DNA of 64,000 nucleotides from Chiloscyllium plagiosum (Eukaryota). The stretch covers positions 47,813,506 to 47,877,505 of the forward strand of contig NC_057727.1 of assembly GCF_004010195.1 (NCBI RefSeq), written 5' to 3'. This document shows, in pieces, positions 12,660-64,000 of this stretch. A program made the position numbers and the translations under genes. Position 1 is the stretch's first letter. Every line of letters begins with the position of its first letter. The notes under the pieces are model-generated. The model did no database searches. It was not told the origin of the DNA and saw only the letters and a list, made by a program, of their open reading frames with translations.

Positions 12660-12826
12660 GATAAATACAACTTTATTGGAGGTGCCAGCAGTTCTGAAAA
12701 AGAGTCACTGCACTCAATATGTTAACTCTGTTTTCTTTCCACAAATGCTTCCAGAGCTACTGAGTTTCTCCAGCAATTTCTATTTTTTTTTCTGATTTTC
12801 AGCACCTGCAGCTTTTTGTTTTATTT
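12660..12826 (+). mobile_element. Penelope-like 3' tail with decayed hammerhead core
   Basis: ctgaaaaagagtcactgcactcaatatgttaac (degenerate CTGAAGA-A-GAGTC..GACTC-GAAACGTT) followed by the PLE tail. Confidence 0.75.
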
Positions 12827-14041
12827 AATCAGACTGGATCCTGGAATGAAGAGATTGTCTGTCTGTTATACATATGAACTGAATAAAGATACCTTTCCCA
12901 ATGGAGAAGAGTATGACCTAAATATCCTTGAGATGGTGTTAGTTAATCTTGGTTAGACTTGTTGATAGTATTTCCATGTTTACTGAAAACCTCTGATTAA
13001 CATGGGCAATCCTCAATTGCCACAATATTTACTGACCTGAAAGTCACTGCATTTAACCACATTATTTATAACACATATTTTCACAGAAACCAATGTAATT
13101 GTTCGGGTTATGTTCCCGGAATATCTAACAAGTACAGAATGCAAGTACAAAGCTAATATAAAACAACAAAATGGATGTGAATATACGGAATTAAAAAAAA
13201 CTTTTCATATTTCTTGCAGCAAATACAAGATTGCTTATCTGGTGGTGGAAAGCAGCTAACAATTTTGAAATATTTATACAGCCTTAATTGTGGCAGTTAA
13301 TGAGTAAAGTGAGTTGAACAGGAACTTACTGAGGAGTGCAATGTTTTAGTACACATTTATTCCTCAACAGTGTTAGGTACTAACCACTATTCCACCAGTC
13401 AGGCATGTATTTTATCAATCATCGCCAATGTCCCCTCCAGTAGCTGCAAGTGTGCATTGCCACTTTGAGGGTCTGTAAAGACCATTAGTGTGCTGGTGCA
13501 TTTGCAGCATTGACTTCTGATTCTAGAGCTCAGTGCTGTGTATGGTCCTCAGAGGATTCTGTAGAAGAAAAAAAATGACAGGAATGCTGGTAATGGCAGT
13601 AAAGTAAAAATTATATTGTGGCAAAGTGCTAATTGTGGACTACCTGCAGTTCATTATCCTTTATAGCTTTTGCAGATAGAGATATTTTAACTTTCCAATG
13701 TACTCTCCTGAAGGAACTGACTCAAGCTAAGTCTGGTTTCATTCATAGGTATCCAAGACATGAGTTAGGTTTTTCCATTGTTAGGCTAAGTATTGTTTTT
13801 GGGACTTTTCATGATTCGCGCCCTATCATGATTCACAGCAACTTTGCTCATACCTTTTTCTGCTCCTCATCTTGTTTGTTATGCATCTAGCATCGTTGGC
13901 ATCCTCTCATATAATCATGCAGCAAAAGGGGAGACATTGCTGCTGCTGGGACCCTCCAGTATATGAACCATTAGCATCATATTTAAATCCCAGGTGCACA
14001 TCACTTCAGAGCTCACGTGCTGTTCTCTTGGGAAAACTGAA

Positions 14042-14274
14042 ATGTCCGAAAAAGGGAAGCTTATACCTGGCTTTCCAGATAGAGACCTGTAGGTCCTGCT
14101 AGGAGAGTGATCAAGAGGAGGGTCATGTCTAACTGTGGACCACCAGAGAATCTCAAGGCACCAAACGCAGCTAACCTGGTTACAGACAGAGGTTTAGGTC
14201 CATGATGTCTTCAGGGTCAGACAGAATGAGTAGCAATTCAGGAAAATAGTCAATGATTTTCTGTGCTACACAAG
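14042..14274 (+). pseudogene. Myb/SANT-like (trihelix) DNA-binding ORF relic, Harbinger-type
   Basis: MSEKGKLIPGFPDRDL*VLLGE...RKIVNDFL; homologous to the copy at 22452. Confidence 0.7.
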
Positions 14275-15386
14275 GCTATGTGCCACCTTCTCTTCTCTGC
14301 TACCTCACATTAATTTTAGTTCTGTCACTGCACACGAACCCCATCAACACCCATGGACTACCCACCTCACTACTGCATACAGCACTTCAACTCAATGTGT
14401 CTCACAAGCTTCATCCTCCATATCTAACCCTTTTTGCACTCTGCTAAAATGTTGTGCAATCCACAGAGCCTGGCAGCCTCTAAGTAAGCACAAAGTGAGA
14501 GAGTGCAAAGAAATGAAGCTAAGAGCCATAAGATGCAAGAGATAGTTGGATATGGTTCTAAGCACAGTGACCTGGCAGGAGCATGCAATCCAAAGGTATC
14601 CTTAGCTCCATAGTAGAGCCCTGAAGGGTTAAAGTAGATATTGAGTCAGTCTGAGGTCAGCTATGATCATGTCATGAGGCTGGTAGTTTGACTGTGCTGA
14701 TTTAAGTGATCAATGGGTGGAGGATCTGGCTGGGCATGGAGCATGCAATGTAATATTGAGTGAAATATGAGCCTTAAACTGGAGCCCTGGAGAAGTGAGC
14801 AATGATCTGCTTCCACTAGGCAACTGCTCTGACTTTCAAGTCAGGAATTGTCAAAGTCTTGTTTCCTGGGGGAGGAGGGGAGAATTGCAAGCTGCATAGA
14901 AATGATACAAGATTAGCCAAACTGAAATGGAAATGCAGGGAAATAAGGTAGTCACTGTTCATTAGCCAGATTTAGCACCCAGCATTGAAACTTAAGAGGA
15001 AAGTCAGCACTTCTTCTCAATGTCAAGATTCAGATTTTTTTCAACCTCACCATATTTTTCCACAGTGCCCACACCAATTAAGCGCTAGGAAAACATCATT
15101 ATTGATAGTCTTTCTTCACATTTCCATCTAAGGAATAAGTACTAATGAACTATTTGACAATTGGGTGCATCACAAGTTGGCTAAACACAGTCCTCATTTC
15201 AAGCCTAGATGTGTATGTTTCCATTGTCACATAAACAAGTGGAACAATTATGCTATTTTCTATTTTTAAATCCAAGCATTTGATGCCATTTGCAGTGTTC
15301 TTTCTGCTCCTTTAGACAAAATGAGTATATTCAGTTTTAGCCATAGTCTCTACTCTGCTCTTTCTTGGTCTAACTTGCTTGATATT

Positions 15387-15493
15387 TTTCTAATCAAACT
15401 ATTCAGTGGTGTTATTACACAGGTGCAGGTGGGGCTTGAACCAAGTCATCCTATCTCAGAGGTAGACACACTACCACTGCACCACAAGAGCCC
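15387..15493 (-). mobile_element. ~110-bp tRNA-derived short SINE-like element
   Basis: Minus strand GGGCTCTTGTGGTGCAGTGGTAG (A box)...GGTTCAAGCCC (B box)...GATTAGAAAAA; second copy at 54091. Confidence 0.7.
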
Positions 15494-15733
15494 AGAACTT
15501 GATACATTTATTCAATTAGATTTGTGTGTTGAGTTGAGGGGTGTTCCAGAAATGCTTATTCACTTGAAAGTATTTAAAGCTATTACAATACTTTATATTA
15601 AAATAACAATTGACACAAATAACAGACTTATTTATTGGCGAATATCCACGATGTGGCTAACAGCAATATTAGTATCTCACTGAAAAATTCACAACTGAAA
15701 TACATGGAGATGTGTTCTTACTTTAATTAACAG

Positions 15734-15788
15734 ACAAATACGTATTAAAGTCTTCAGAAGAGATTAGGGTTTGTCCATTACAGTATAA
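15734..15788 (+). CDS. Candidate small exon (KYVLKSSEEIRVCPLQY)
   Basis: ctttaattaacag acceptor, AA|gtaatg donor, open frame, phase 1 to 2. Confidence 0.2.
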
Positions 15789-16014
15789 GTAATGATTTTC
15801 TAATGATTTGATCATTCTTACAATCCGTGAAACGATGTCACTGACACTGAAAATCAACTTCAAGATGTATGCTGTCTTAATCTCAATCTAAATGATTGCT
15901 AGTGATATAATTTTCGTTCCTTTACTTTTTTTTCTTTCTGTCTCTTTTATTGCTTCCTTCATCACATTTTTTGATCTCTATTTTATTTTCTGCAGTCAAT
16001 TTAACATTGAAGTA

Positions 16015-16231
16015 CAGGTCATTCTGCTATAGTATGTTTTGTTAACGCAAATTCACTATAACGCAAATGATGAATTGGGGACACTGTTTTTAAAGTGCAA
16101 ACTTTTAAAGCATGTATTGGTTATAACATGATTCTAGCCCCATTAGTTTAAATGGTGCTGCTATTACATGATTTTCTTATTATACGGGATTGCATGAGAA
16201 CGAAACTATCGCGTTATAGTAGAACTGACTG
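16015..16231. mobile_element. Tc1/mariner-type MITE (Tigger/MER6-like)
   Basis: TA on both sides; imperfect TIRs CAGGTCATTCTGCTATA / TATAGTAGAACTGACTG; repeated internal TATAAC motifs. Confidence 0.8.
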
Positions 16232-17829
16232 TAACTGTTTAAAGAAATACATCCTAGTTCAGACTCTGTGCTTCTCATTAATGATGCTTCATTAGTTAAA
16301 GAGACACACAGTTGTTTGCTCTGTTCACACAGGTTCTACATGCACTACAAAAGGGGGCTGCACTTGATAATTGGTTAACGGGAACACTCACTGAAATCGA
16401 CAAGAAAGTGCAAGTGTAATAAATGTTTGGCACTGTTTACTGCTCACTGCAGAATCCATCTCAGTAACTTGAAGTTATAAATTGAAAATCTCCCCATCTA
16501 TCTTGTTTCCAGAAAAAAAAGTTGAAATGATAGATATTATTAAAATTAGCGGATTGAAGCATATGAAATATCAAATACCATAGAATATGATGTTAAACAT
16601 GTCTTGTTATGTTTATTTCATAACCACGAAATGTGAATCTCTAGTAGTAGCAAGCTGCACTGCCAAAAACCTATTCAACTATGAATCAGCAGATTGCAGA
16701 GGGTACTGTGAATTTTGTGCAATACTCTGAGCAATCTGGAAAAGATTCTTCTGTAAATTTTGATTGGCATGTTGTTCCATGGGAATTTTTTGTGCTCTGA
16801 CTAACCTAAAGGTGAGAATGAACAACATTGACTGATGGTTCTAAAAGGGAATAAATGGTTACTATAACATTACCTGTGAACTTAACAAGGTTTTGGAAAG
16901 TTCAAAGGCCATCTAAGTAGTAACATTGATTTATATCCTTGACAGTCTTCATTGCCCTTTTAACATCTGTGTGTTTTATATTGGATGCTATCTGTGAACA
17001 TTAACAATTGTTAAAATTAAAAAGATGAAGAATTTGTACTCTATTGCAATTTTTGTGCATACTGTTGTTTACATGATCAGCTGATGCAAATTCCACCCTT
17101 ATGGCTGAATGTAACAATTAATTATGTTGAGTGGTGCAGGACTGAAGAATAGCAACAGACTGTTTATTTAAATGGAAGTAGTTACCTACAGTTTGAAGAA
17201 AGTCAGTGCTTTTGTAAGGAAAGGCAATAAATTAACCTTCCCCTCAGCAGTTAAAGAACACAATATCCGAATAGCTCTACAGATGTGCAGTCTTCAAATT
17301 ATAGCCTTGTGCTGAAATATATAGACAAGGAACACTAACTATCAATGCAGAAAATATTAACCTCGAGAAAATCTAATTTTAGGATTTCATCTTAGAACAC
17401 CACATGACATCTATTTAAATGATCAATTGCCAAACATTTACCTGAGTACATTGCTGAATTGCTTATAATTCAGAGATAGATGTCCCTAGAGGCTGAAGAT
17501 AATCTGCAATAATTTTTATTCATTCAGTTGTATATTTATATAATTATTTATTACTTAAATTATAAGATTCCCATGCGACTATATTAAAGTTTTATTGATG
17601 TTGGTCATATGAATGTAATTAGCATACAACATTCTTGCTTGCAAAGATTACAGTCCGTCTATCGAGATATTTCTACTCAAGATTATTTACGAAAATAAAT
17701 TGCTCCTATGCTGTCCCAAAATATCTTGTTGTTGGAGATATGTTAATTTTTGGTTGAGGAGTGGGTGTTGGCACAAAGAGAAAAATAAGCTTTGGTTCTG
17801 GCAGGCGAAGAGATAAATATTTGCAAATA

Positions 17830-18237
17830 TCCGCCACAGTTCAATGGGCAGCACCATTGCCTCTGTGTTTGAGTTCCACTCTAGGATTTGATCTTGGTTG
17901 ACATACAGCAAAATTCTGAGGAAGTACTGTGCTGTTGGAATTGCTGCTTTTTGGGTGAGACGTTCAACAAAGACTGTTTATAATTTCAAATTGATGTAAA
18001 ATTCTCAAAACAAAAACAGGTGAGTTATCCCAATTACCCTAGCTAATATTTGTCTCTTGATAACAATAAGACAAAAACAAATTGGAATCACATTGCTGTT
18101 TGTTGTGTGCTCATTGTTAACCATGTTTCTTTTGTGAAGGTAATAGTGATACTTAAAGAAAAAGTACTTAATTTGCGAAAAAAAGAACTTTGTGATGTCC
18201 TGGGATTGTGAAAGACATTATATAAGTGGTACTTCTT
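17830..18237 (+). mobile_element. Old Deu-domain SINE (SacSINE1-like) with L2-type tail
   Basis: ctgaggaagtactgtgctgttggaattgctgctttttgggtgagacgttcaac resembles the Deu domain; tail ctttgtgatgtcctgggattgtgaaagacattatataagt. Confidence 0.7.
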
Positions 18238-19962
18238 ACATGTAATTCAGACTTTTTTGTGAACCTAAAGGATAATTCCTACCATTTTTGCAATCATTGC
18301 TGAAAAATGAAGGGTTTTCTCTTTACCTAATCCTCACCTACTTTGTGGTAATCCATGGTGGAACTTCATTTTGACAGATTTGTATAATTTAATCTTCCCC
18401 TTCTTTCAACATTCTTGCTTGCAAAGATGTAAGCTAAATTATTTTTTGATCATAATCATTACAATTCATGGGAAAGATGGGCAGTAAAAATAAGTAGAGA
18501 AATATAGATAACAAAATGTTTTAAAATGCTACATTTATGGCCAAATGAATCATTTTGCTCTAAAGAATGTTTGACATGAAACTATTCATTTAAATTGTAT
18601 CTACTTCAATTAAAAATTCTACATTAATTTGTGTCAGTATGTTATGCTCATAAGGCCAAGTAACCATGCTATTTCCGGAAGAGGCAATTTTGCACAGTAA
18701 ATAATCAGAACATCAAAAGCTATTTACATTTGAATGCAGCATTTAGATGTGACACTGTTTTGTTAAACGTGCTGTAGTAACTTTGAGCTGAGAAATGGAT
18801 TATGGGCACAGCAGTCTACATATGAAACAATCTCACTGATGAATTCAAGCTCATTGTAAGCACACTGTAAATGACACTGAAAGCTTCTTTTTACCCTTGC
18901 ACAATTTGAGAAAAGTTATGTCTTTTTCTTTGTCCTTTTAGATGCTGTATTCAATTGTAAATAGCTTTGGGTTCCTGATCTATTGCCTTGTAAAATCATT
19001 TTCCCACCGCATAACTGAAGATGCTTTTATGCTAAACCTATGATTCGGAAGAGGAATGCCAAAGAGATCTCTGCGTTGCTCATTCACAACTAGTGGTTCC
19101 AAGATGTGTTGGAAGCCATTTTGTAGAACACTACTTCTTGGCTTTACAATTCAGCCTTTAAATAAAGAACAGAGGCACAGACAATATAAAATGTTCCCAC
19201 TTAATTTCAGAGACATTGAATTTATTAGATTTAAAATGTGGCTGATATTGGAATATACATTGAATTGTACAGGTGAGACACATAGATACTGTGTACTCTG
19301 AGCATTTTGGCACTGACCTGTTTCACTACATTTGGCAGCTGTAGAAATAGGTCTTCAGATAATATGAAATATGGGTCTCTTTTGTTGTCAGCTAGAAGGA
19401 GCTTGGGAAATTTATTGGAGGAGTACAGCTTCCATAGGGCTGAGCTATGTAGAACACACAGTTAAGGCAAAAGCACATTTAGTTTGATTATGTTAACACA
19501 AAATGGAGGAAAATTATATGTTTGAATTTGAGATTTTTATGTTGTAAAACTACAGATGTATTAAATATGTTGCTCTCTGTAGCAGATCTGTCAAATGCAT
19601 TTACCCACTAAGTTAGGAAGGGAGGGAAAAGGCAAAAAAGTAAACTGCATCACCTCAAAATGATCACTATTATCAGGGTTTTTTTTTCTGATTTGCACTA
19701 ATATATTAAAGTTTACCACAAAATAATTATACATGTACAGTTAAAATCCTTTGTTTCTGTATACTAGAAAACATAATACAGTTTTAATTGGAAAGGGCAC
19801 TCCAGATTATATGTTAGAAGTTTTATATGACGTCATATTAGTTTAATGGAACTTTGCCTTAAAATATGATTGTACATATTTGGAAGTAACACAAACACAA
19901 TGGCAGATATTTATATGTTTTCAGTGTTCACCCCACATTGTCTCATTGCCTTCACTAAGTAT

Positions 19963-20760
19963 GGCTAGGATTCTCCATTGGGTTGGCATCCCCACAAACC
20001 ACTACCCATGCCCCCAACAGAAATGTTAAGAAGGAGCCTGCCCTTGCTCTGTCAGTTTGTCTTGCAGCCATTTAGCAGCCAGCATTAACTGACATGAGGT
20101 GGACCTTCTATACCATCTGTGAAAAAAAAATCTCCAAAAGCTTCTGGCCAATCATGAGGCTGAGGTAGTGTTCTGTCCTCCAAGGTGATATTCACAGGAC
20201 CTGAGCATCCTGGTAACAGGAGAGGTGTTGGGGAGGGACGTCTATGAATTTTACATTGGAGTCAGGGAAGCAAGCCCCGGAAAGTTGGATGGGTGGCCAC
20301 AGTGACTGGTCAGGAGGGGAGAGGAAATGCTGGGTTGAATGGGAGGAGAATGAGAGAGCTGGGGCAGGTCTGGGAAAGTCACATTGAGCTCAGGATGCAC
20401 ATAAAGGAAAGATTCACTCTGTTGCCCACCATCAGGCCCAGCAGTGAAGTTTGCCAGCATTCACAATTGGTGCACACCTACAATGTCTTGGTAAAAATTA
20501 TGGTGGGAGCAGGAATAAAATTTTAAGTGAACAATTATTGCCATTGGAGTCACATGTAGGCCAGACTAGGCAAAGATGGCAGATTCCTATGCCAGATGAC
20601 ATTAGTGGAACAGGTGGGTTTTTCCCAACAACAGATTCAAGGTCATCATTAGACTCTTACTTCCACAGTATTGTGCTCAATTTTATGCAACCCCACTCCC
20701 ACAACACCTCATCCCTGGAAGAGAGAGGGCTGAGTTTGGGTGTGAGATAAAATTCAGGCC
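19963..20760. mobile_element. Harbinger-like non-autonomous element(s) with a nested SINE fragment
   Basis: Imperfect terminal inverted motifs ggctaggattctcc / gataaaattcaggcc, followed by TAA. Confidence 0.35.
20530..20670 (-). mobile_element. MetaSINE-like fragment
   Basis: ggagtcacatgtaggccagac...gacattagtggaac is the antisense of the core at 21690-21760. Confidence 0.75.
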
Positions 20761-20890
20761 TAAGTTTCAGTATTGTTGGACTTCAGGTGGCCATGAAACA
20801 CAAAGTAATTATATTTCCAAACCCAATAGGCTGACTTAGTGACAGTGTTAGTGTTACCATTGTAATGTTTGTTGTCTTGAATTTTTTCAG

Positions 20891-20974
20891 GAAAGGATAC
20901 TCAAAAGCTTTGAAATCTCACATCGCGCAGCAAGAACTGAATAAAGTCTCAGCTACACTGAAGCAATCTTCAAA
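20891..20974 (+). CDS. Candidate 84-bp symmetric exon (KGYSKALKSHIAQQELNKVSATLKQSS)
   Basis: attttttcag acceptor, AA|gtaatg donor, length a multiple of 3, open frame, helical-looking peptide, retained CpGs in unique AT-rich DNA. Confidence 0.35.
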
Positions 20975-28887: not shown

Positions 28888-29014
28888 GATTAGGAGATGC
28901 CGGTATTGGACTGGGGTGTACAAAGTTAAAAATCACACAACACCAGGTTATAGTCCAACAACTTTAATTGGAAGCACACTAGCTTTCGGAGTGACGCTCC
29001 TTCATCAGGTGGTT
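28888..29014 (-). mobile_element. Short Penelope-type terminal insert (distinct subfamily)
   Basis: ~125-bp segment in unique DNA; begins with a hammerhead core. Confidence 0.7.
28977..29011 (-). ncRNA. Minimal type I hammerhead ribozyme, intact core
   Basis: cac CUGAUGA a GGAG cguca CUCC GAAA GC UA gug: conserved core, 4-bp stem II, AGCU palindromic stem III, CAC/GUG stem I. Confidence 0.8.
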
Positions 29015-29504: not shown

Positions 29505-30649
29505 AGGGGAGGTTATAGTGACTGACTGTGAAGTCGAGGCTGCATTTGATAGAGTATTACATGAAAGAGCCTTAGCAATTCTACAGTCGAAAGGAATCAG
29601 GGAGAAAAATCTCTGCTGGTTGGAATCAATTCTAGCACAGCAAAGATAGTTATTTTTGTTGAAGATCAGTTATTTCAGTTACAGGACATCTCTGCAAGAG
29701 TTCCTCAGGGTAGTCCAGAGTCCAATCATCACCGGTTACCTTGCTTTCAACATGAGGTCAGAAATAGGGATATTCGCTGATGATTATGCAATGTTCAACA
29801 CCATTCACGATGCCTTAGAAACAAATTCAATCTATGTTATAACACAGCAAGATCTGGACAATATCTGGATCTGGGTTGACAAATTGCAGGTAACATTCTC
29901 ATTGCATAAGTGCCAGGCAATGACCATCTCCAACAAGAGACAACCTTACCTATTTTCCCCAGAAATTCAGTGTATTACCATCATTGAATCTCCCCACTGT
30001 CAATATCTTGGAGGATATCATTGACCAGAACTGAACAGCTCCAGCCCCTTAACTACTATCGTTACAGGAGCAGGTCAAGTCTGAGGAATCTTACATTGAG
30101 TAACTCACCTGTTGACTTCCCAAAGCATGTCTACCATCCAGAAGACATAATTCAGGAGTATGATGGAATATTCTCCAGTTGCATGGATGCTTGTAGCTTC
30201 AAGAATAATCAAGAAACTCAATTTATTCAGAACCCGGCAGCATACTGGATTGGCTTCACAGCCACAAACAGTCACTCACTGCATCACCGATGCTCAGTAG
30301 TGGCAATGTGTACCATCTACTGCTCAGATGCTCACCAAGGCTTTTCAGACAGCATCTTCCAAACCCATGGCCACTACCATCTTGAAGGACAAAAGCAGCA
30401 GATACAAGGGAACATGATCATCTGCAATCTATTCACCATCCTGACTTGAAAATACATTGCTTTTCCATCAATGTCACTGGATCAAAATCCTGGAATTTCC
30501 TCCCTAATGGTATTGTGGGTCTACCCTCACTAAATGAGCTGCAATAGTTCAAGAAGGCAGTTCACCACCAGCTTCTCAAGGGCAACTAGAGACAGGTAAT
30601 AAATGCTGACCCAGCCAATTTTTCCCACATCCCATGAATGAATAAAAAT
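29505..30649 (+). mobile_element. CR1-like LINE (second family), 3' RT and tail
   Basis: AAFDRVLH, EIGIFADDYAMF, QQDLDNIWIWVDKLQVTFSLHKCQ; tail cccacatcccatgaatgaataaaa. Confidence 0.92.
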
Positions 30650-31012: not shown

Positions 31013-31019
31013 TTAAGAA

Positions 31020-35940: not shown

Positions 35941-36177
35941 GATACTGAGGAAGAGTCACTGGGACCAGAAACATTAACACTGGGTTGGAGTAAGGACATG
36001 GGAGAGTTCGAGCCCTAAAGTTTCCTAGCTACCATCAGTTCTAAGGAAGGGTCACCACACCCAAAACATTAACTCTGATTTCTCTCCATAGATGTTGTCA
36101 GACCTGCTGAGCTTTTCCAGTAATTTCTGTTTGTGTTTCTGATTTCCAGCATCGGCAGTTTTTTTGGTTTTTATTTT
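35941..36177 (+). mobile_element. Penelope-derived unit with two tandem decayed hammerhead cores
   Basis: ctgaggaagagtcactgggaccagaaacattaac (35945) and ctaaggaagggtcaccacacccaaaacattaac (36041), then the PLE tail. Confidence 0.75.
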
Positions 36178-39429: not shown

Positions 39430-39953
39430 ATGAACAAGAACAGAAATTGCTGCAAAAGCTTAGCAGGTCTGGCAGCATCTGTGGAGAGAAATCAGAGTTA
39501 GCATTTTGGGTCAAGTGACCCTTCATCAGAATTGATGGTGGCCTGGAAGATATTGGTTTATATGCAGAAAATAGTGTGGAAGCGGGTAAGGAATAAATGG
39601 GATAGAGAGAGAGAGAGAGAGAGAGGAATGGTTGGACAGAGAGAGGAATGGTTGGACAGACAAAGATAATGATCTGGCTACAAGGGTGAATAGTTATTTA
39701 TGGGGTCTGTCAGAAGCTAACAATGGGTTGTGTGTAATAGCCAACTATGTAATAACAAGGCCTATTGTGCGGGCCTGAGGTAAGGACATGGAAGAACTCA
39801 AGCATTAAGGTTTCCTTGCTACCATCAGTTCTGAGGAAAACTCACTTGACCAACAATGTTAATTCTGATTTCTCTCCACAGATGCTGCCAGACTTGCTGA
39901 GCTTTTCCAGTAGTTTCCATTTTTGTTTTTGAACTGCAATTCTTTTGGTTTTT
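39430..39953. mobile_element. Inverted pair of Penelope 3' ends (minus arm 39430-39810, plus arm 39811-39953)
   Basis: The arms are reverse complements over ~110 bp; each has a decayed hammerhead core. Confidence 0.85.
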
Positions 39954-39969
39954 AAAACAACACAATCTA

Positions 39970-40189: not shown

Positions 40190-41220
40190 CCACAGATGCT
40201 GTAAATCAGAAATAAGAAATAGAAAATGCTTGAAAAGGACTCAGCAGGCTAGGACAGTATCTGAGTAGAGAGAGAAACAGAGATAATGTTTTCAGGTCTG
40301 TGACCTTTCACCAGAACCATGAAAAGTTTAAGATATTTGAGCATGTGGTGAATGGTACAAGGACAACAGGAAGATTGTCAAAGGTTTGAAAACAGGAGAG
40401 ATGGAATGGCAGAGAATTGGCCATAGAAGGCCAAAGAAAATGGTTGTGGGACAAGAAAAGAATCAAAACATGGGCTTGGAGCAAGTGCGTTGCTCACTGT
40501 AAGAAATGAAAGAAACCAAGGAGAGAAAAGGAAACAGAATGGAGACAGTATATGGTCTGGACTTGAACTCACCATTGAATCCAGAAGGCTGTTATGTGCC
40601 AGATTAGAAAATGACTTTTCAAGATGAAAGATGGTCCTGAAGCTGACATTGTGTCTCACTCAGGTTGAGAGCAAAAGTAGCAGTATGAAAACAAGAGGGA
40701 GATTAAAGGCTGCTGGAAATTTGGGACCATACCAATTGACAATTGGAGGTGTTTCACTAAGTGGTCATCTAATGTGCATTTGATTTTATCAATATTGAGA
40801 AGTGAATACAGTGTACAAAATTGAAAGGAGATTGCAAAATTGTTACTTCACCTGGAAAAGGCTTTGGACAGTGTGGAGGTTGGAAGTAAAACACTAAGTG
40901 TTTACATGGGTTTTGAAAGGTGCCTTGGGAGAGAAAAGGGATGTTGGTGACTGAGGAGTGGACTAGGGTATCTCAGAGGGAATGGACACTTCGAAGTGTT
41001 GAATCGGGTGGGAAAGGAAGATGTGTTTGAGGGCAACATCACACTGAAAGAATGAAACATGGCAGAAAATGATGCACTGAATGCAGAAGCTGGTGGGATG
41101 GAAAGTGAGGACAAGGAGAATCCCATTGTGGTTCTGGGGAGAGGGAAATGTTGTGGGAAGAACTGTGACTGACATAATCAAGGGATTCATCAACCATGGT
41201 GGGGATGGGGAATGCATTCA
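40190..41220 (-). mobile_element. Penelope-like retroelement 3' portion (RT-GIY-YIG linker, endonuclease remnant, 3' UTR, decayed hammerhead)
   Basis: GILLVLTFHPTSFCIQCIIFCH...LKHIF linker motif; terminal ctggtgaaaggtcacagacctgaaaacatta. Confidence 0.8.
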
Positions 41221-48239: not shown

Positions 48240-49810
48240 CTTGTCCACCTTCACTTGCCTGGATGAGTGAACGCCTGGCAATGCTTAGACAAAGAGCATG
48301 ATTGGGAGGCAAACGTTCTCTCCCTTTACCACCAGCATGCAGCAGCAGCAGAATTAACTAATTGAGAGATGCATTTCAGCAACTTGACAAGCTTCCTGTG
48401 ACAGCAGTTTCCAAATTCTCAACCTCTATCTTCTAAAAAGACAAGGGCAGCCAAGTCTAGAACAATACCTGCATGATCCCTCTTCAAGCCAGGCACTATC
48501 TTATTTTGGAACTATTTGACTGAGTATGGCATCAGGGAACACTGGAATGAATTTGTATCAGGGACAAACTCTCTGGTGGTTGAAGTCAGGTCTGGCACAT
48601 AAGAAGATGGTTGTGGTTGTTGGAGGTCAGTTATCTCAGGTCTGTGACATCTCTGCAGGAGTTCCTTAGGTTAAGTGGCCTAGGCCCAACCATCTTCAGC
48701 TGTTTCATAAATGACCTTCCCTCCATCATAAGTTCAGAAGTGGGGATGTTCGCTGATGATTGCAGAATGTTCAGCACCATTCGTGACTCCTCAGATACTG
48801 AATCAGTCAGTGTTCAAATCCAACAAGATCTGGACAATACCCAGATTTGGGCTGACAAGTGGCAAGTAACATTCACACCACACAAATGCCAGGCTATAAC
48901 CATCATCAATAAGAGACCATCTAAACACCGCCTCTTGACATTCAATAGTGCTACCATCATTAAATTCTTCACTATCAACGTCCTACAGGTTATCATTGAA
49001 ACTCAACTGGATTCACCACATAAACACAGTGGCGACAAGGGTAGGTCAGAGACTAAGAATACTGTGGTGACTAACTCTCCTCCTGACTCCTCAAAGCCTG
49101 TCAACCATCTACAAGGCACAAGTCAGGAGTGTGATGGAATACTTCCCACTTACCAGAAGTAGTGCAGCTCCAACAACACTCAAGAAGCTTGACACCATCC
49201 AGGACAAAACAGCCCGCTTGATTAGCAATACATCCACAAGAATCCATTCCCTCCATCACTAACGCTCAGTAGCAGCAGTGTGTACTAGCTACAAGATCCA
49301 TTGCAGAAATTCACCAAAGATCCTCAGACAGTATCTTCCAAACCCACAACTAATTCCATCTGGGACAAGAGCAGCAGATACATGGGAACACCACCACCTT
49401 CAAGTTCCCCTCCAAGCCACTAACCATCCTGACTTGGAAATATATCAATGCTCCTTCACTGTCACTGAGTCAAAGTCTTGGAATTCACTGCTTAATGGCA
49501 TTGTGGGTCAACACACAGCAAGTGGACTGCTGTGGTTCAAGAAGGTAGCTCACCACCATCTTCTCAAGGGCAATCATGGCTGGGCAACAAATGCTGACCA
49601 GCCAGCGATGCTCACATCCTACAGATGAATAGTTTAAAAAAAAATCACTGCTCCTTAAGTGTAGCTGGGTCAAAATCCTGGAAATTTATTCATAACGGTA
49701 CTGTGGGTTCAAGAGGGCAGCTGACCACCACTTTCTCCAGGTCAATTACAGATAGACAAGAAATACTGACCTTGTTAGTAATATTTGCTTTCCATTAAAT
49801 AATTTTTAAA
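48240..49810 (+). mobile_element. CR1-like (second family) copy at 48516-49643 nested inside an older copy of the same family
   Basis: LGPTIFSCFINDLPSIISSEVGMFADDC...QQDLDNTQIWADKWQVTF; the flanks on either side continue the same 3' consensus. Confidence 0.9.
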
Positions 49811-52220
49811 AATTGTAAACAGGTTAGTTGTTTTGTGTATATCTTGTTAAACTGTTGCAGTTTTAAAAACAAAGAATATTTTTGAATAAATAATCATAAT
49901 TTAGGTGATGTTATACTGTATTCCTTTTAAGTAGTGATTAATAGACACTTTTTCTAGAATTCAACCTGCTAACTACAATAAGGTTACTATTTATTCTTGA
50001 GAATGAGCTGGCAGCTCATGATCTTGCAGCTGAGTTCCTGCTTAGCTCATTTATGAATTGATCTTTATTTTCCAATGTTTGAGTTGTCACAGTTGTAAAT
50101 TTTGTATCACGTCCTCATGACTAAACCTCCCATTCAATGATTTTGGTGCACTCAGACTAATTTCATGGGAAAATCATTACTTCAATTGCTTAGTCAAATC
50201 ACTTTTGTTTGTTAAATGGAAATAGATCGCTATTCAATAGTGTACAATGCACTTTGAAAGCTGTACTGTAAATCTCTTTTTTTAAACTGTATTAATTTTT
50301 CTTGCTTTTGAGTCTTCAACTATTTACCATCACAATTAAGGATAGTTAGATAAAATATATCAGACTCCTGCCAGAACCAAGTACAGGGAAGCATTTATAA
50401 CAGTGAGGGATCACTCGTCAACTGGGATCTTTGAACACAATCCACAACCACAGGCCCCTTTAAAATAGGTGGATTTTTATACTGATCAAAGGGCTGCAAG
50501 GATGGCATAGCGAGAATGGAATCCTTTTTTGATAACCTGAACCTCCCCAGAATAAATGCAGAGCAGGCCTCCCTTTTAAATGCATCCCTGATGATAGAAG
50601 AGGTGCAGGAGGTGAAGCACCCGGTCCAGACGGGTTCCCGAGTGAGTTTTACAAGGCGTTTATGCACATGTTAGCTGAACCACTTCTGGAGATGTATGGT
50701 CATTTGTATAACCAGGACTGCCTGCCACCATCCCTTTGGGAAGCCAATATCACCCAAAAGGGAAAGACCCCGAGGATTGCACGTCATATAGACCTATCTA
50801 GTTGTTGAATGTAGTTTTCAAAATTTTAACAAAAGTCCTGGCCCTGAGGCTGGAAAAGATACTGCCTGTTATGATAAAAGAAAACCAGATGTGTTTTATG
50901 TGTTTTATCATCCATAATATCAGGAGGGTACTGAATATAGTATATGTATGTCAGCAGAGATTGATTCTGTGCTTGGAGGTATCCTTGGATGCAGAAAAGG
51001 TGTTTGATCAGGTGGAATGGTCGTATCTCCTTGATGTTCTAGATCGGTTTAGCTTTGGAGGGGCCTTCGCTTGGTGGGTGGCAGTGATATATAGAGACCC
51101 CAAGGCGGCAGTTATCACGAACGGCAGCCGACAGGAGTGGCCTCTCTCACTGCTGCTATTACTTTGGTAATTGAGCCGCTGGTAGATGCCATCCAGCGGG
51201 ACCCTGAAATAGTGGCACCAAAATTACTCTTTATGCAGACGATGTCTTTCTGTTTCTTGCTAATCTGGAAAAGTCCCCAGCAAACACAAAAAGTTAAATT
51301 ATTCGGCAGTTTCTTGGGATGCAGGATAAATTTCAACAAGTCGGAATTCATGCCTGTGGGAGGATTAATGGAACTGCCTGAGTTGGAGGATAGAATGCAG
51401 TTTCCTTTTTGGTAGTCACAAGAAGGTTTTCTCTACCTGGGAATGTTTATTACCCCTGTCTTCCATCAGCTATATGCAGCTAACTTTGTGCAACTGTTGG
51501 ATAGGATAAAGCAGGACATGCAGCAGTGGGAGGGGCTACCAATAATGTGGTAGGCCATATAGCCCTGATTAAAATGCATGTTCTTTCTCGGTTATTATAC
51601 CCTATGAGGATGTTCCTGTTGTTGCTACCCAGATAGGTGCTGTGGTGCTTTACCGGTTGGCTTGGTCATTTATTTGGCACTGAAGGCACCCCGAATTAAG
51701 TTTATTAAGCTGCATCTCCTGCAGGGTATGGGGGGGAAGTGGGTGGGGTCATGGATCTTATAGATCACAAGAGATGCCAAATAGATGTCCTGTTGTCATA
51801 TGTGGGTGGCTGGGTGTGTAAGGACTTGAGGTCGATGCAGCTTGATGCTGCCTCGCAGGCAAGGTGTCCCCTTGTTAATTTATTGTTTATGGACAAAATG
51901 TGATCTGTGGCTGTGAGAGGCCAATTATCTTCAATATGGTGAAAGCTTGGAGGATAATGCAGCAGGGTGAGGGCAACTTACTTAAGACTTCGCCATTCAC
52001 CCCATTAGTGGGACTCTCAGGATTTAGGCCGGGGTCAATAGACTCCAGCTTTCGAGTATGGAAGGGTAAAGGAATCTCCTGTCTGGGAGATTTATTTGAG
52101 GGAGAGATCTTTATGTCTTTTAACCAGTTAAGTCAGAAATATGGGTTACCTTATAGGGAACTCTTTTGATATTTTTAGGTTAAGGATTATATACAGAAGA
52201 AGACCATGCTCTTTGCTCAG

Positions 52221-52316
52221 AGCTGAAAAATGTGTTGCTGGAAAAGCACAACAGGTCAGGCAGCATCCAAGGAGCAGGAGAATCGACGTTTCGGGCATAA
52301 GCCCTTCTTCAGGAAT
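52221..52316 (-). mobile_element. 96-bp Penelope-tail insert with 16-bp TSD inside the L1
   Basis: Flanks catgctctttgctcag (52205-52220) / catgttcttggctcag (52317-52332). Confidence 0.88.
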
Positions 52317-52317
52317 C
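52281..52317 (-). ncRNA. Minimal type I hammerhead ribozyme, intact core
   Basis: gauuc CUGAAGA a GGGC uuau GCCC GAAA CG UC gauu: core intact, ACGU palindromic stem III, GUC cleavage triplet. Confidence 0.82.
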
Positions 52318-54709: not shown

Positions 54710-54963
54710 AGATGATTCTTCCAATTTTTTGTCAAAGTTAACAGTATTTTTCATTGTGCAGATTACAATCAAAGAAGCTGATACCTTTACAAATGAGGAG
54801 ATTCAAGTCATTTCCATTCTGAGGAGCTAGCACATCAGTTACCCAGCTCTCTTAACATGAAATATTTGATTTGTCCTGTTTTGAAAGGAGTAAAGTGAGG
54901 ATATGGAAGCAGAATGAAAGAACACTATTAAATGCAGATCTATACTTAACTTGACACAGAAAG

Positions 54964-55263
54964 TTTAGATTAGATTCCCTACAGCACAGAAACAGGCCCT
55001 TCAGTCCAACAAGCCCACACCAACCCTCTGAAGAGTAATCCACCGAGACCCATTCCCCTATCCTATACTTACCCCTGACCAACTCACCTAACTCTATGGG
55101 CAATTTACCTAACTTGCACATCTTTGGATTGTGGGAGAGAACCCACACAGACACAGAGAGAATATACACACACCACACAGACAGTCACTCAAGGCTGGAA
55201 TTGAACCTGGGTCCCTGGTGCTATAAGGCAGTAGTGCTAACCACTGAGCCACTATGCTGCCCC
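54964..55263 (-). mobile_element. HE1 SINE, older and internally deleted
   Basis: Antisense head gggcagcatagtggctcagtggttagcactactgcc, partial V-domain, tail (aatct)n. Confidence 0.9.
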
Positions 55264-57469: not shown

Positions 57470-57830
57470 ATTCAGTACAGAAGAAAGCTATTTGACCCTT
57501 CATGGCCACCATTCATAGAGCAATTCAATTAATCCCACTTCTCTATTCTTTCCCCAGAGTCCTCGAAATTGTTTACCTTTAAATAGTTATCCAATTATTT
57601 TTGAGTGCCATTATTAGATTTGCTTCCACCAGCTGTCCTGGCAGTGCATTCCAGATCACAACAACTGTTTAACAAAATGTTTTTTCATGCTGTTTTTGGT
57701 TCTTTTAATTGCCTTAAATCCACATCCACAGGTAACAACATTTTCATCCTTTTTTCAGTCTTTTTAAAATTGATGATTTTGACCACCCGTGTTAAATTCC
57801 TTTTCTGCTTTGAGAATAAAAGTGACATTT
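57470..57830 (-). mobile_element. Old CR1 3' end
   Basis: ggcagtgcattccagatcacaacaactg, antisense of VVIWNALP. Confidence 0.6.
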
Positions 57831-58528
57831 TCTGGAACAATATGTTGTGGAATGAATTAGGAATAAACTTGTTTTAGATATAGCATTGTGCAACATGTTG
57901 GGGCTAACTGTTAATATCTTAGTAAAATTCCACAGGTGACCATAATATAAAATCAAATCCCATGTCTTTTAGAATAACATTCACCAATCGCAAACATGAA
58001 TCTTAAACTTACAACAAAACCAATTACATCTGCGGAACAGGAATAGGGAGAGCTATTTAAGGTTGTTTGGGTAGATAAACAACAAAGTAAGTTGTTACAT
58101 AAACAATAGGAAACAATTAAAGAAACAATTTAAAACCTTCAACAAAAGTACAGTGTATTGAAACAGAAAACCTTGTTGAGAAAGAAACAACTGTGACGTT
58201 TTAAGGAGTTTAAGAGTAGTATTGGATTAAAAGAGCCTATAATATTTCAAAGAAAGTAATAAATATGAGGTTACAAGTTTTTTAGAAACCTGCAAAGGGC
58301 CACCAAAAGTTGATAAAACATGAAAAATAAAATGGATATTATCTTCAGAAGGGTAGAAAAATAGCTAGGAACATTTACAATTAGAAACAATTGCAACAAT
58401 ACATTGGGGAGACTGGACGCCTTCTAGCAGAGCGCTTTAGGGAACATCTCCGGGACACCCGCACCAAACAACCACACCGCCCTGTGGCCCAACATTTCAA
58501 CTCCCCCTCCCACTCTGCCAAGGACATG

Positions 58529-58957
58529 NNNNNNNNNNNNNNNNNNNNNNNNNNNNNNNNNNNNNNNNNNNNNNNNNNNNNNNNNNNNNNNNNNNNNNNN
58601 NNNNNNNNNNNNNNNNNNNNNNNNNNNNNNNNNNNNNNNNNNNNNNNNNNNNNNNNNNNNNNNNNNNNNNNNNNNNNNNNNNNNNNNNNNNNNNNNNNNN
58701 NNNNNNNNNNNNNNNNNNNNNNNNNNNNNNNNNNNNNNNNNNNNNNNNNNNNNNNNNNNNNNNNNNNNNNNNNNNNNNNNNNNNNNNNNNNNNNNNNNNN
58801 NNNNNNNNNNNNNNNNNNNNNNNNNNNNNNNNNNNNNNNNNNNNNNNNNNNNNNNNNNNNNNNNNNNNNNNNNNNNNNNNNNNNNNNNNNNNNNNNNNNN
58901 NNNNNNNNNNNNNNNNNNNNNNNNNNNNNNNNNNNNNNNNNNNNNNNNNNNNNNNNC
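58529..58957. other. Assembly gap (429 N)
   Basis: Run of N. Confidence 1.
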
Positions 58958-59127
58958 CACAGTCCAAAGATGTGCAGGTCAGGTGAATTGGCCATGCTAA
59001 ATTGCCCATAGTGTTAGGTAAGGGGTAAATGTAGGGGTATGGGTGGGTTGCGCTTCGGCGGGTCGGTGTGGACTTGTTGGGCCGAAGGGCCTGTTTCCAC
59101 ACTGTAATGTAATCTGTAATCTGTAAT
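58958..59127 (+). mobile_element. HE1 SINE 3' half (5' part lies in the gap)
   Basis: Nearly identical to 11168-11325. Confidence 0.95.
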
Positions 59128-59904
59128 CCAGAATCTGGTTTCCAGCATCTGCAGTCATTGTTTTTACCCTGAACCCAGATCCGTATCTCCAGCTTAATCA
59201 ACACCTTTCTGGAAGTTTCAAATACATTGCATGAAAGACTTACCTGTAGATTATCCAACTACAAAACAAAATGAAGCCAGGCATGGGAATATTCAAATTA
59301 ACTCAGGCAATGATTTTTGGGTGAGCAAAAGGAAGGATGATGGATTTGTATCAATAGAAATGCAGATTGTCTTCGACTCCCTGATTGTTTCCCTTCGCCT
59401 TTCAAAAGAAAACAGTATTTTATGATGAAGTTATTCACAGAGAATTCAAAGATAACGACATATATTCACTAAGGTGAGGAAACAAGTTATCAATTAAATA
59501 GTCTTGAACATGAACTAACAACTCAAAGATCCTAAGGACTTTTTAAATGGCAAACTCTTGATCTTTTTTGTACTAGACTTTCTACTTCTTAAAATTTTAG
59601 ACCTGGTGTGACATGTCACATTTAATTGTTTTTCTTGGGGTCAATAAGCAATAAAATTCCTTCATCCATCATACAAGAAAATCTTTCGATTGACTCCTTA
59701 ATTTTGAACTAGTGAATATATTTGCTTTGAATTGTGATATAGCTGTGTGCTTAAAAGAACTTGAAAATCTTTGATGCAGTCAGCCATGAGGATTAAAAAT
59801 TTGGGATCCCGATTCATCTCTTCGCATCTGGTCACACAATAACATTAGAAATACAAAATATTTTTTAAAAGCATAGAAGTTGTAAGCGTTTATATTCAGA
59901 GACA

Positions 59905-60036
59905 GTTCTTCATTCTGATGAAGGGTCACTTGACTTGAAGTGTTAATTCTGTTCTCTCTCTCCACAGAAGCTGCTGACTTTCTCTAGCACTTTGTTTTTG
60001 AGATCTCAAGCATCTGCAGTTCTTTGTTTTATTTTG
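59905..60036 (+). mobile_element. Penelope-tail insert with decayed hammerhead core
   Basis: ctgatgaagggtcacttgacttgaagtgttaa followed by the PLE tail. Confidence 0.8.
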
Positions 60037-60074
60037 TGCTTCGACAGAATTGGCTGTTCTCATGGATGAAATAC

Positions 60075-60350
60075 AGAAACTTAGCATGAAGGAGGAGCAA
60101 GCAATTAGAAAAATAGATGGTGTGGTCTTTAGTGCAAGGGGATTGGTTTACAATGATAAAGAAGACTCGCACAGGGCTTTGGTGAGACTATATCTGAAAT
60201 ACTTTGCACAATTTTGATCTCCAAACGGATGAGAGGTTTTGTTTTCCAATGGAGACTGAAAGGTTGCTTACTTGCATGGGGAATCCATGTCAAGAGACCC
60301 CAGGGTCAGGATAAGGGGTCAATCATCTTCGAGAAAAATAAAGACAATTT
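60075..60350 (+). mobile_element. Old CR1 3' fragment
   Basis: RALVRLYLKYFAQF, a degenerate KALVRPHLEYCVQFW motif. Confidence 0.6.
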
Positions 60351-60786
60351 TCTGCTGATTTGTGGAAGACAGAAGTTCTGAACACAGAAGTGACAGAGGA
60401 TGATTTGTGGGTTTCCAAAGCAGTTGTGGAAATTTCTAGTAATTGAGAAGGTGAGAGATGATGGGAGCAGGGGGTAACGCTAGAACACAGAAGAAATACT
60501 TCTGCTTCACCTGGCCCACAAGCAGTGTCATGAATATGCTTACCTTAAAAATTCAGATCAACTCAACTCTTTTTACTTGATAGATTTGCTGCTGTGTGAG
60601 AAGCCAATTAACTGTGATAAAAGAAAATGGAATCAGTTATTAAAATGAAGGCTTACAGCCATGTGGAAATGTTTGAAAGAACTGACTTGGCTACTGCTTT
60701 CAAATTGATCACTGTTTCCTGTTCTATTTCCACTAAAACCAGAAGAGATTGTGTTTCAGATAGTTTCAATTCCTATTTCAAATTGT

Positions 60787-63700
60787 CCTGGGGAAGGTGG
60801 GACCTCTACAAACAGGATGGTCTTCACCTGAACTAGAGGGGTACCAATATCCCCGGGGGGAAAATCTGCTAATGCTCTTTGGAGTGGGGGGAGGGGATTT
60901 AAACTAATGCTGCATGGGGATGGGAACCTGAATTGTAGTTCTAGTGTACAGGAAGTTGAGGGTAGTGAGGTCAGGGATAGGTTTACAAGGTTGCGAGAGG
61001 ACACTGGCAATCAGGGTGTTAGTTTGAAATGTGTGCACTTCAATGCCAGGAGCATCCGGAATAAGGTGGGTGAACTTGCAGCATGGGTTGGTACCTGGGA
61101 TTTTGATGTTGTGGCCATTTCGGAGACATGGCTAGAGGAGGGGCAGGAATGGTTGTTACAGATTCCGGGATTTAGATGTTTCAGAGAAAATGGTAAAAGT
61201 TTGTAGCAGGCGGTGGCACTGTTAACCAAGGGTAGTATTACAGCAGCTGAGATAACATGTGAGGACTCACCCACTGACGCAGTTTGGGCTGATGTTAGAA
61301 ACAGGAAAGGAGAGGTCACCCTGTTGGGAGTTTTCTATAGGCCTCCGAATTGTTCCAGGGATGTAGAGGAAAGGATAGCAAAGATAATTCTCAATAGGAT
61401 CGAGAGTAACAGGGTAGTTGTTATGGGGGACTTTAATTTTACTAATATTGACTGGGAATACTGTGGTTCAAGTACTTTTAGATGGATCAGTTATTATTCA
61501 ATGTAAGCAGGAGGGTTTTCTGACACAGTACGTAGACAGGCCAACAAGGGGCGATGCCATATTGGATTTGGTACTGGGGAATGAACCCAGCCAGGTGTTC
61601 GACTTGGAGGTAGGTGAGTATTTTGGCAATAGTGACCATAATTCGGTTATGTTTACAATAGCAATGGGCAGGAATAGGTATACATTGCAGAGAAAAAGGT
61701 ATAACTGGGGTAAAGGCAATTATGATGTGATTTGGCAAGGTTTAGGATGCATGGGATGGGGAAAGAAACTGCAGGGGATGGACACACTTGAAATATGGAG
61801 CATATTCAAGGAACAGCTACTGTGGGTCCTTGATAAGTATATACCTATCAGGCAGGGAAGTAGATTTTGAGAGAGGGAGCCATGGTTTACTAAAGAAGTT
61901 GAAGCTTTTATCAGGAGGAAAAAGACTTATGTGAAGATGAGGTGTGAAGGCTCAGATAGGGGGCTGAAGAGTTACAAGTTAGCCAGAAAAGATCTAAAGA
62001 GAGGGCTAAGAAGAGCCAGGAGGGGACAAGTGAAGTTGTTGGTGGATAGGATCAAGGAAAACCCTCAGGCCTTCTAACGGTAAATCAGGAATAAAAGAAT
62101 GACTAGAGTAAGATTACGGCCAATCAAAGATAGTAGTGGAAAGTTGTATGTGGAATCTAAGGATATAGGGGAAACACTTAATGAATATTTTTTGTCAGTA
62201 TTCACATTGGAAAAGGGCAATGTTAGAGAGAATACGGAGATACAGGCTACTAGATTAGATGGGATTAAGGTTGATAATGAGGAGGTTTTAGCAATTTTGG
62301 AAGATCTGAAAATAAATAAGATCCCTGGGCCGGATAGGATTAATCTTGGGATTCTCTGGGAAGCCAGGGAAGAGATTGCAGACCCTTTGGCTTTGATCTT
62401 TATGTCATCATTGTCGATAGGAGTAGTGTCAGAAGCCTGGAGTATAGCAAATGTTGTTCCCTTGTTTAAGAAGGGGAGTCGAGACAATTATAGGCCAGTG
62501 AGACTTACTTTGGTTGTGGGTAAGGTGTTGGAAAAAGTTATAAGAGATTGGATTTATAATCATCTGGAAAGGAATAATTTGATTAGAGATAGTCAACACT
62601 GTTTTGTGAAATGTAAATCGTGCCTTGCTAACCTTATTGAGTTCTTCAAGAAGGTAACAAAACAGGTGGCTGAAGGTAAAGCAGTTGATGTAGTCTATAT
62701 GGACTTCGGTAAGGCGTTTGATAAGCTTCAACACGGTAGGCTATTGCACAAGATATAGAGTTTCAGGATTAAAGATGATTTAGCGGTTTGGATCAAAAAT
62801 TGGCTAGCTGAAAGAGGACAGAGGATGGTGGTTGATAGGAAATGTTCATCCTGAAGCTCAGTTACCACTGGTGTGCCGCAAGGACCTAGCTCCTCCTCCT
62901 CCTGCTCCTCGGATGCTGTCTGACCTGATGTGCTTTTCCAGCACCACTCTAATCTTGACTCTGATCTCCAGCATTTGCAGTCTTCACCTTTGCCCTGCTG
63001 CAAGGATCTGTTTTAGGGCCACTGCTGTCTGTCATTTTTATAAATGATCTGGCTGTGGGCTTGGAAGGATGGGTTAGTAAATTTGTGGGTGACACTGAGG
63101 CAGATTTGTGGAGAGTGCTCAGGGATGTTGTGGGTTACAGAGGGTCATAGATAAGATACATAGCTGGGCAGAGAAGTGGCAAATAGAGTTGAATGCGGAA
63201 AAGTGTGAGGTAGTTCACTTCAGAAGATATAACAGGAATGCAGAGTACTGGGTTAATGATAAAATTCTTGGCAGTGTAGATGAACAGAGAGATCTTGGTG
63301 TCCAGGTGCAAATCCCTGAAAGTTGCTGCCCAGGTTGATAGGGACATATCAACTTAATCGAGACATATAAGATAATCAAGGGGTTAGATAGGGTGGACAG
63401 TGAGAGCATAAGAAGGCATACGGTGTGTTGGCATTTATTGGGAGGGGCATTGTGTTTTAGAGCCACGAGGTCATGCTCCAGCTGTACAAGGCACTGGTAA
63501 GGCCACACTGGAGTACTGCTTACAGTTCTGGTCACTACGTTATAGGAGAGATGTGGAAGCTTTGGAAAGGGTTCAGAGGAGATTTACTAGTATGTTGCCA
63601 GGTACGGAAGGAAGGTCTTACGAGGAAAGACTGAGGGAACTGAGGCTGTTTTTGTTGGAGAGAAGAAGGTTGAGAGGTGACTTAATCGAGACATATAAGA

Positions 63701-63881
63701 TAATCAAGGGGTTAGATAAGGTGGACAGTGAGAGCCTTTTACCTCAGATGGTGAAGGCTAACACAATGGACACAATTTTCAATTGAGGGGTGATAGATTT
63801 AGGACAGATATCAGGGGTAGTTTCTTTACTCAGAGGTGTGGGATGGCCTGCCTGCAGCAGTAGTAGGCTCACCTACATTAA
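60787..63881 (+). mobile_element. Near-full-length CR1 (HER1-like): end of ORF1 esterase plus ORF2 APE endonuclease and RT, with stops and frameshifts
   Basis: ORF1 WDLYKQDGLHLN; EN NARSIRNK, VVAISETWL, GVFYRPPN, MGDFN, PTRGDAILDLVL, SDHN; RT PGPD, NYRPVRLT, VDVVYMDFGKAFDK, VRPHWSTA, RLRGDLIETYKI. Confidence 0.96.
62885..62995 (+). mobile_element. 111-bp Penelope-tail insert (no ribozyme core) with 11-bp TSD inside CR1
   Basis: Flanks tgccgcaagga (62874-62884) / tgctgcaagga (62996-63006). Confidence 0.85.
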
Positions 63882-63883
63882 GG

Positions 63884-64000
63884 AGGAGAAAGTGAGGACT
63901 GCAGATGCTGGAGATCAGAGCTGAAAAATGTGTTGCTGGAAAAGCGCAGCAGGTCAGGCAGAACCCAAGGAGCAGGAGATGATTCCTGAAGAAGGGCTTA
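63884..64000. mobile_element. Inverted Penelope tails: minus arm to ~63979, then a plus arm starting with a hammerhead core (cut by the window end)
   Basis: Minus arm nearly identical to 52218-52280; gattcctgaagaagggctta at 63981-64000 is the reverse complement of 52298-52317. Confidence 0.88.

Follow-up and report, generated by a model that had tools for sequence, protein, structure and literature searches.

As far as the accessible text of Cervera and De la Pena 2014 (PMC4209133) goes, minimal hammerhead ribozymes reside in the pseudo-LTRs (pLTRs) of metazoan Penelope-like elements (PLEs). The insertion unit of these elements is described, in the available parts of two accounts, as carrying an inverted pLTR and a one-sided tail of 30–40 bp (PMC3846280, PMC8557442), the latter of which still calls the origin of inverted ends and one-sided tails undefined. 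In vitro, the anole Poseidon element PAc extends both strands from two internal starts that bound the tail and uses mainly uncleaved RNA; the accessible sections of that report predict a dimer and give no reads ending at the cleavage site (PMC11167929). Non-LTR retrozymes are defined, in the available portion of their description, as head-to-tail repeats with a ribozyme in each unit (PMC7229834). For L1, PMC11702581 traces the additional G found at the 5' junctions of full-length copies to the cap.

We analyzed a window of 64,000 nucleotides (C18:47813506-47877505) in the 3.56-Gb genome of Chiloscyllium plagiosum, for which an earlier note had claimed ten minimal type I hammerhead cores of PLE type. 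All ten are present where that note placed them, three intact and seven decayed, and they are of the CUGANGA/GAAA type of several PLE families, with covarying stems. The intact family B core (28984-29008, minus strand) combines a GGAG/CUCC stem II with the palindrome AGCU and the triplet CUA; in the intact family A core (52289-52312, minus strand), the corresponding parts are GGGC/GCCC, ACGU and GUC. The core at 63986 on the plus strand, cut by the window end, is completed in the neighboring stretch L031 as a second intact family A core. The decayed cores (12694, 35945, 36041, ~39500, 39831, ~40300 and 59915) all represent one old family C. Their description as one to two mutations away from the motif was too lenient for 12694 and 39831, which show more damage once stem II is counted. 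The proposed insert size of ~100–160 bp suits most copies (~100–165 bp) but not the ~370-bp arm at 39433-39802; we agree that the short inserts lack coding sequence. A further copy without a core, at 62899-62990, comes in addition to the ten. Throughout, positions along the hammerhead-bearing module are counted from C3 of CUGANGA (0), with the family A cleavage site between +27 and +28.

Table 1 PLE-derived features in the window (columns: positions, strand, feature, remark).
12661..12826	+	Old family C stub with decayed core 12694	Matches a long copy at ~75% identity
28887..29017	-	Family B (Neptune-like) tailed stub	Starts 9 nt before its intact core; no clear target-site duplication
35945..35982	+	Decayed family C-like core	Forms a partial head-to-tail pair with the 36041 core, which lies 96 nt downstream; missed by the family A/C profile
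35990..36176	+	Family C copy with decayed core 36041	~50 nt of parental upstream sequence
39433..39802	-	Family C arm, left arm of an old head-to-head pair	Reaches 268 nt upstream of its decayed core (~39500-39530)
39780..39954	+	Family C arm with decayed core 39831	Right arm of the head-to-head pair with 39433..39802
40193..40321	-	Family C stub	Starts ~8 nt before its decayed core (~40300)
52215..52317	-	Young family A (Poseidon-like) tail-less stub, core intact	Target-site duplication of 11 bp (one mismatch); extra G; A at -4 initiator-like
58385..58528	+	GIY-YIG endonuclease fragment of a family A PLE, then an N gap; tail end ~59125-59168	PF01541, E=0.011, below curated cut-off
59913..60034	+	Decayed family C stub	Begins at its core (59915)
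62899..62990	+	Family A tailed stub without core	First base 32 nt past C3; target-site duplication of 11 bp (one mismatch)
63867..63883	+	Left copy of the perfect 17-bp target-site duplication flanking the head-to-head pair	Right copy just past the window end (L031)
63884..63979	-	Left arm (tailed, lacking a core) of a family A insertion in head-to-head form	
63980..64000	+	Start of the tail-less right arm, core intact (C3 at 63986)	Ends ~64030 after an internal deletion

Other repeats share the window. Positions 1-4820 hold a tandem array of a 31-bp unit (156 copies, 81% matches) that is unrelated to the hammerheads. A dispersed repeat of ~300 bp recurs at 11020-11325, 54980-55262 and 58957-59115, contains a tRNA T-arm-like hairpin (11073-11087) and is presumably a tRNA-derived SINE of the shark HE1 type; one such copy sits within the PLE fragment at 58385-59168. 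The broken reading frames at 29650-30449, 48584-49628 and 60832-63786 we take to be CR1/L2-type LINE, and both the 62899 stub and the 63884 pair are inserted in the last of these frames.

Motif statistics were collected in a 1.264-Mb sample comprising the window, 200 kb of neighboring sequence and ten 100-kb blocks (arbitrary positions; 41,212 N). A strict core with a stem II of at least 4 bp matched 91 times, as compared to 4, 4 and 0 times in three shuffles, and the genome contains 19,672 copies of an exact 32-mer that includes the family A core (reversed control, 0). In total, 293 family A/C arms and 69 family B arms were found in the sample, corresponding to about a million arms if extrapolated. 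An Rfam search returned no hammerhead match to these cores even at E ≤ 1. The set of CUGANGA, GAAA, NUH triplet and stems I and II is intact in young copies of the families and in three of the ten window copies. Covariation of the stems was borne out, with 82 of 90 cells paired and two-sided changes at seven of nine positions, as counted by motif anchoring (MAFFT misaligned family B). The underlying ten copies from four families were hand-picked, are related and were selected for pairing, which makes the control lenient; shuffles averaged 52 paired cells, and none of 2000 reached 82. Positions 15.2/16.2 are palindromic across the families, again among selected and related copies, as expected of minimal type I PLE hammerheads. 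Such hammerheads reportedly cleave as dimers, according to a 2017 paper. Upon co-folding of two copies, the dimeric hammerhead was not the lowest-energy fold in any of five cases, a result of little weight for an intermolecular stem of 4 bp. In the commonest subfamily, stem I is weak (two pairs, a U-U mismatch, then one or two pairs). Outside the window, L119:8120-8165(-), L086:2199-2244(+) and L129:8905-8947(+) represent a fourth family, whose stem II is long and which has an extra U, and a variant whose stem I is palindromic throughout.

Within the accessible text of PMC4209133, the cores described there resemble ours in their minimal type I architecture, the extra base between positions 9 and 10.1, the G10.1-C11.1 pair, the palindromic 15.2/16.2 and the short stem I, and likewise in the presence of many families per genome, mostly as single dispersed motifs with some opposite-strand pairs 100–700 bp apart. 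Thousands per genome are given there, whereas we count ~20,000 exact copies of a single subfamily core; that text ascribes single motifs to truncated PLEs and contains no map of 5' ends.

The tiny hammerhead-bearing inserts are probably end-module copies, 95–130 bases long, of ordinary autonomous PLEs, a judgment made jointly with that on their run-off from a capped, uncleaved 5' end (see below). In long copies, the module lies ~200 nt behind a GIY-YIG frame, and stretch L181 contains the reverse transcriptase (RT) further upstream. Linkage of the module to an RT with C-terminal GIY-YIG was found for family A, and tblastn placed GIY-YIG upstream in families C and D; long family B copies bear a C-terminal fragment ~650 nt upstream of the module, which we liken to GIY-YIG. 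The Poseidon and Neptune labels are our assumption from motif likeness. The optional 30–40-nt tail and the inverted 5' copy, a trait of EN+ PLEs, are both present. Searching the genome for RVT_1 returned 150 places. None of fourteen stretches inspected for full-length elements contained a complete unbroken one: copies were broken or gapped, and assembly N gaps inside long copies may inflate the short fraction. Beside one PLE copy, L184:6062-7462(+) encodes an intact-looking 467-aa BTB/zinc-finger host frame.

A tail read-through motif has 985 exact matches genome-wide. Rare copies continue past the tail to an ATG 37–38 nt on, with a shared frame in all four loci translated, running for 20–40 codons before each breaks off; no copy joining that ATG to the RT was recovered. 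Since the module runs into this ATG, it is probably the 5' leader of the PLE mRNA, besides being the 3' end of inserted copies. Counted from C3, the likely ATG is ~165 nt downstream, unlike that of PAc, whose ORF starts inside the hammerhead according to the available text (PMC11167929). Module positions +55 to +77 (e.g., 52236-52258, minus strand) contain a branch-point-like CTGAC, a pyrimidine run and CAG, resembling a 3' splice site in the leader; no spliced joint was among the features listed for RNA reads and contigs of related organisms.

Mapping the ends of the copies revealed a sharp 5' edge. A total of 286 of the 293 profile-derived family A/C arms aligned to 29 long natural copies, and 173 passed 84% identity and 35 bits. 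Among the latter, 45 break at -6 to -3 (11.25 per nt), as compared to 12 at -40 to -11 (0.4 per nt) and 14 at -300 to -101 (0.07 per nt); seven break at the cleavage site (+27 to +30; 1.75 per nt), and breaks at +16 to +26 are rare (0.36 per nt). Two classes of copies hence emerge: long truncations, which tail off smoothly, and a sharply bounded group that starts just before the core and trails into it. The family B peak is broader (-12 to -3; 16 of 53 arms). Exact genome-wide counts for one subfamily core gave 19,672 copies reaching -4 and only 10,299 reaching the parental -7; ~5,700 exact copies lack the A at -4, ends at -3 being about as common as ends at -4. A fixed CATG start, suggested by our first genome search, was discarded, as the query itself contained CATG. 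The 3' ends are bimodal, at ~+92 and ~+127 (35 and 39 monomers; 8 other), reflecting the known optional tail. Insertion was target-primed, with target-site duplications of 11–19 bp, in line with the PLE-type retrotransposition that the earlier note had proposed. Upstream flanks were common to only five of 41 short monomers, two of them representing a duplicated locus and three looking like missed inverted arms. No transcription start was seen in RNA from related organisms, where neither starts nor ends of molecules pile up; the data, single-cell polyA reads and contigs, make this a weak test. The reads cover the module on both strands, as passive transcription would, and show the same three edges as loose ends, which are inserted copies within host transcripts, not RNA ends.

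The edge is accompanied by an extra G. At -5, the non-parental letter is G in 3,230 and A or T in 2,129 cases genome-wide—60% G, as compared to 25% expected from a GC content of 40.6%. One base later, at -4, the control gave 759 non-parental G versus 4,948 C or T (13% G), a position whose own pyrimidine excess lowers its G share independently. Reading 30 G-start loci by eye, we found parental upstream sequence in none, and a hidden parent subfamily with G at -5 was rejected on the same count; a double-hammerhead master whose cleavage makes the G start was likewise dismissed, only 12 such joins existing genome-wide. Nineteen of the 30 loci are head-to-head, and in many of these the G could come from the other arm; in most G-start monomers, it lies within target microhomology and could partly derive from the target. 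In families A and C, the sequence around the A at -4 reads TCATTC, TTATTC or TCAGTT, a context that we take to resemble the initiator consensus. By analogy with L1 junctions, the non-parental G at -5 is likely a copied cap.

Inverted pairs constitute 52 of 134 younger insertions (~40%), the window insertion at 63884-64030 being a head-to-head example with its perfect duplication. In 34 of 66 pairs, one duplication scoring at least 10 surrounds both arms (mismatched-flank controls: 0, 0, 0, 0 and 1), with lengths of 11–19 bp around a mode of 14. These 34 comprise 29 tailed/tail-less combinations, a single tail-less/tail-less one and four unclassifiable pairs; the mixed state hence accounts for 29 of 30 classifiable pairs (binomial p = 6e-8), with monomers splitting 39:35 plus 8 other. 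Over all 66 pairs, 41 were mixed, 14 same and 11 unclassifiable, most ‘same’ pairs being old and poorly aligned. Family B behaved similarly (12 mixed, 1 same, 4 unclassifiable; n = 17). Both arms of a pair belong to one subfamily, with loop II agreeing in eight of nine readable pairs, and arm identity is 0.95 within versus 0.91 between pairs. Palindromic junctions occur in some pairs. Since both arms cover the same bases, a pair calls for two RNAs or one RNA copied twice; and with its two cores on opposite strands, it yields no transcript with two sense hammerheads. L1 twin priming, in the available text of PMC11702581, likewise involves priming at both target ends, discrete 12–18-bp duplications and the extra G at full-length 5' junctions, but its inverted pieces are adjacent parts of one RNA, whereas here both arms span the same bases.

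On balance, we favor the reading that the stubs are target-primed copies of the PLE end module, run off a capped, uncleaved 5' end. Transcription would begin four bases ahead of the core, at an A whose initiator-like motif doubles as the 5' arm of stem I; the PLE reverse transcriptase would start inside the RNA and run off its 5' end to leave a stub. The two 3' ends may represent the two internal start sites known in vitro for the anole PLE. A start at the 5' module copy would generate a stub, and one at a downstream copy—in a read-through tandem or a circle—the long, smoothly truncated copies. To make a pair, the two nicked target strands would each be extended, each from a different one of these sites, and microhomology would then join the two cDNA ends. 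We go further only tentatively, in proposing that transcription starts from the first base of stem I and that a protein dimer might prime both nicked strands on sense RNA that is capped and uncleaved, using for each strand a separate fixed site in the RNA, the two sites being 35 nt apart. In the available text on PAc, both strands are likewise extended from two internal sites bounding the tail, on uncleaved RNA and with no ends at the cleavage site (PMC11167929). The same text reports no strand difference in start site for PAc, whereas the asymmetry seen here implies strand-specific starts. The inserted hammerheads themselves are likely decaying passengers, with the motif kept by selection in active parents.

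The earlier note had instead read the inserts as possibly a separate non-autonomous family resembling retrozymes. Such a family would have master copies of its own, cleave itself in dimeric or circular form and be moved in trans. Their defined length, lack of coding sequence and very high copy number would suit such a family, and they share small size, non-coding nature, a type I hammerhead and relatedness to PLE ends with non-LTR retrozymes, as far as two sources are available (PMC7229834, bioRxiv 10.64898/2026.07.22.740005); according to the latter, a preprint, retrozymes descend from PLE ends and occur in tandem in one chondrichthyan genome. Yet short and long copies intermix rather than forming a short-copy clade: in a low-resolution tree of 66 short and 23 long copies (only 80 columns), labels changed 20 times versus 20.6 in shuffles, 211 of 500 of which were as low, giving no lineage distinct from the autonomous partner, and one identical sequence is common to one long and two short copies. 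Monomers and head-to-head pairs dominate, in contrast to the head-to-tail repeats that define retrozymes in the available text (PMC7229834); head-to-tail repeats in which two or more adjacent units each retain a complete ribozyme do not characterize these copies. Same-strand neighbors within 1 kb amount to eight pairs among 157 arms, only three of them closer than 250 nt, and the sole head-to-tail pair in the window (35945/36041) is decayed. Tandems are rare, each with its own junction, and cores are joined directly only 12 times genome-wide. These joins are direct 33-nt core duplications through near-identical stem I arms (exemplified by L265, L269 and L272, around 1480-1560), whose adjacent cores could fold as a cis dimer. 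Short head-to-tail two-core pairs do exist in L192, L195, L199, L202 and L204 (around 1380-1800), which were chosen for tail read-through; with 70–130 nt of ORF start between the modules and different junctions, they are the nearest thing to a retrozyme in the genome. Several such pairs re-enter at -3 or -4, which is consistent with a template jump following run-off; true retrozymes could arise from this minority. Moreover, the cleavage site, where cleavage-released monomers should start, shows no 5' peak. For the bulk of copies, we therefore consider the retrozyme-like reading largely refuted, and overall it is highly improbable.

A smooth length distribution, which the earlier note had named as the mark of mere random 5' truncation of full elements, is indeed found for copies beyond -10, which thin out gradually. 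However, break density at -6 to -3 is 28-fold that at -40 to -11, and about half of the exact copies leave the parent within three bases; random truncation is refuted for the short class and has next to no probability as a general account. Less remote, if still unlikely, is that the edge marks a structural stop, where RT or a nuclease ends at the outer border of a folded, protein-bound hammerhead on a longer RNA, leaving the parentage unchanged. In each of families A, B and C, the edge does fall on the 5' arm of stem I, many ends lie at -3, and the RNA starts were not seen in the related-organism reads. Against a stop stand the confinement of the G excess to -5, the weakness of stem I in the commonest subfamily, and the rarity of breaks at +16 to +26, on the 3' side from which a polymerase would enter the helix. 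As for the pairs, a single cDNA that folds back to prime itself, or else an antisense template, the proposal made for rotifer PLEs, would account for the palindromic junctions and the single subfamily per pair, and is put forward in the available text of PMC3846280. Fold-back of sense cDNA, though, needs the tailed arm to reach furthest 5'. Among the 29 pairs, it is the tail-less arm that does so in 17, sometimes by hundreds of bases, with the tailed arm further in eight and four ties (17/25 alone, p = 0.11), so that sense-cDNA fold-back cannot have produced those 17. The antisense version is untouched by this count, but initiation on a sense template at the tail ends is shown in vitro in the accessible text of PMC11167929, and we regard either version as very unlikely.

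The run-off reading concerns an architecture that is already in print: head-to-head inversion, a tail at one end only, target-site duplications and an initiator-like pLTR motif all feature in the available text on the PLE insertion unit (PMC3846280, PMC8557442). Our insertions differ in usually consisting of only the two ends, and the asymmetry counted here (29/30) argues against the fold-back offered in those accounts. Together with the cap-G count and its control and the link from leader to ATG, this asymmetry sharpens an open mechanistic question; a search of openly accessible article text found no prior report of the cap-G or of the two-strand asymmetry. If our reading holds, the promoter start can be read from the stubs at single-base resolution, and a strand-specific choice between the two start sites follows as a prediction. 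The two-site rule, if true, would explain the one-sided tail, the inverted pseudo-LTR and the solo hammerheads across PLEs, without antisense templates or fold-back. Many stubs are arranged as inverted repeats of ~90 bp, which, as part of host transcripts, would pair into double-stranded RNA. Should the run-off reading hold, dispersed ‘monomeric retrozymes’ in fish, shark or frog genomes may likewise be run-off by-products of autonomous elements.
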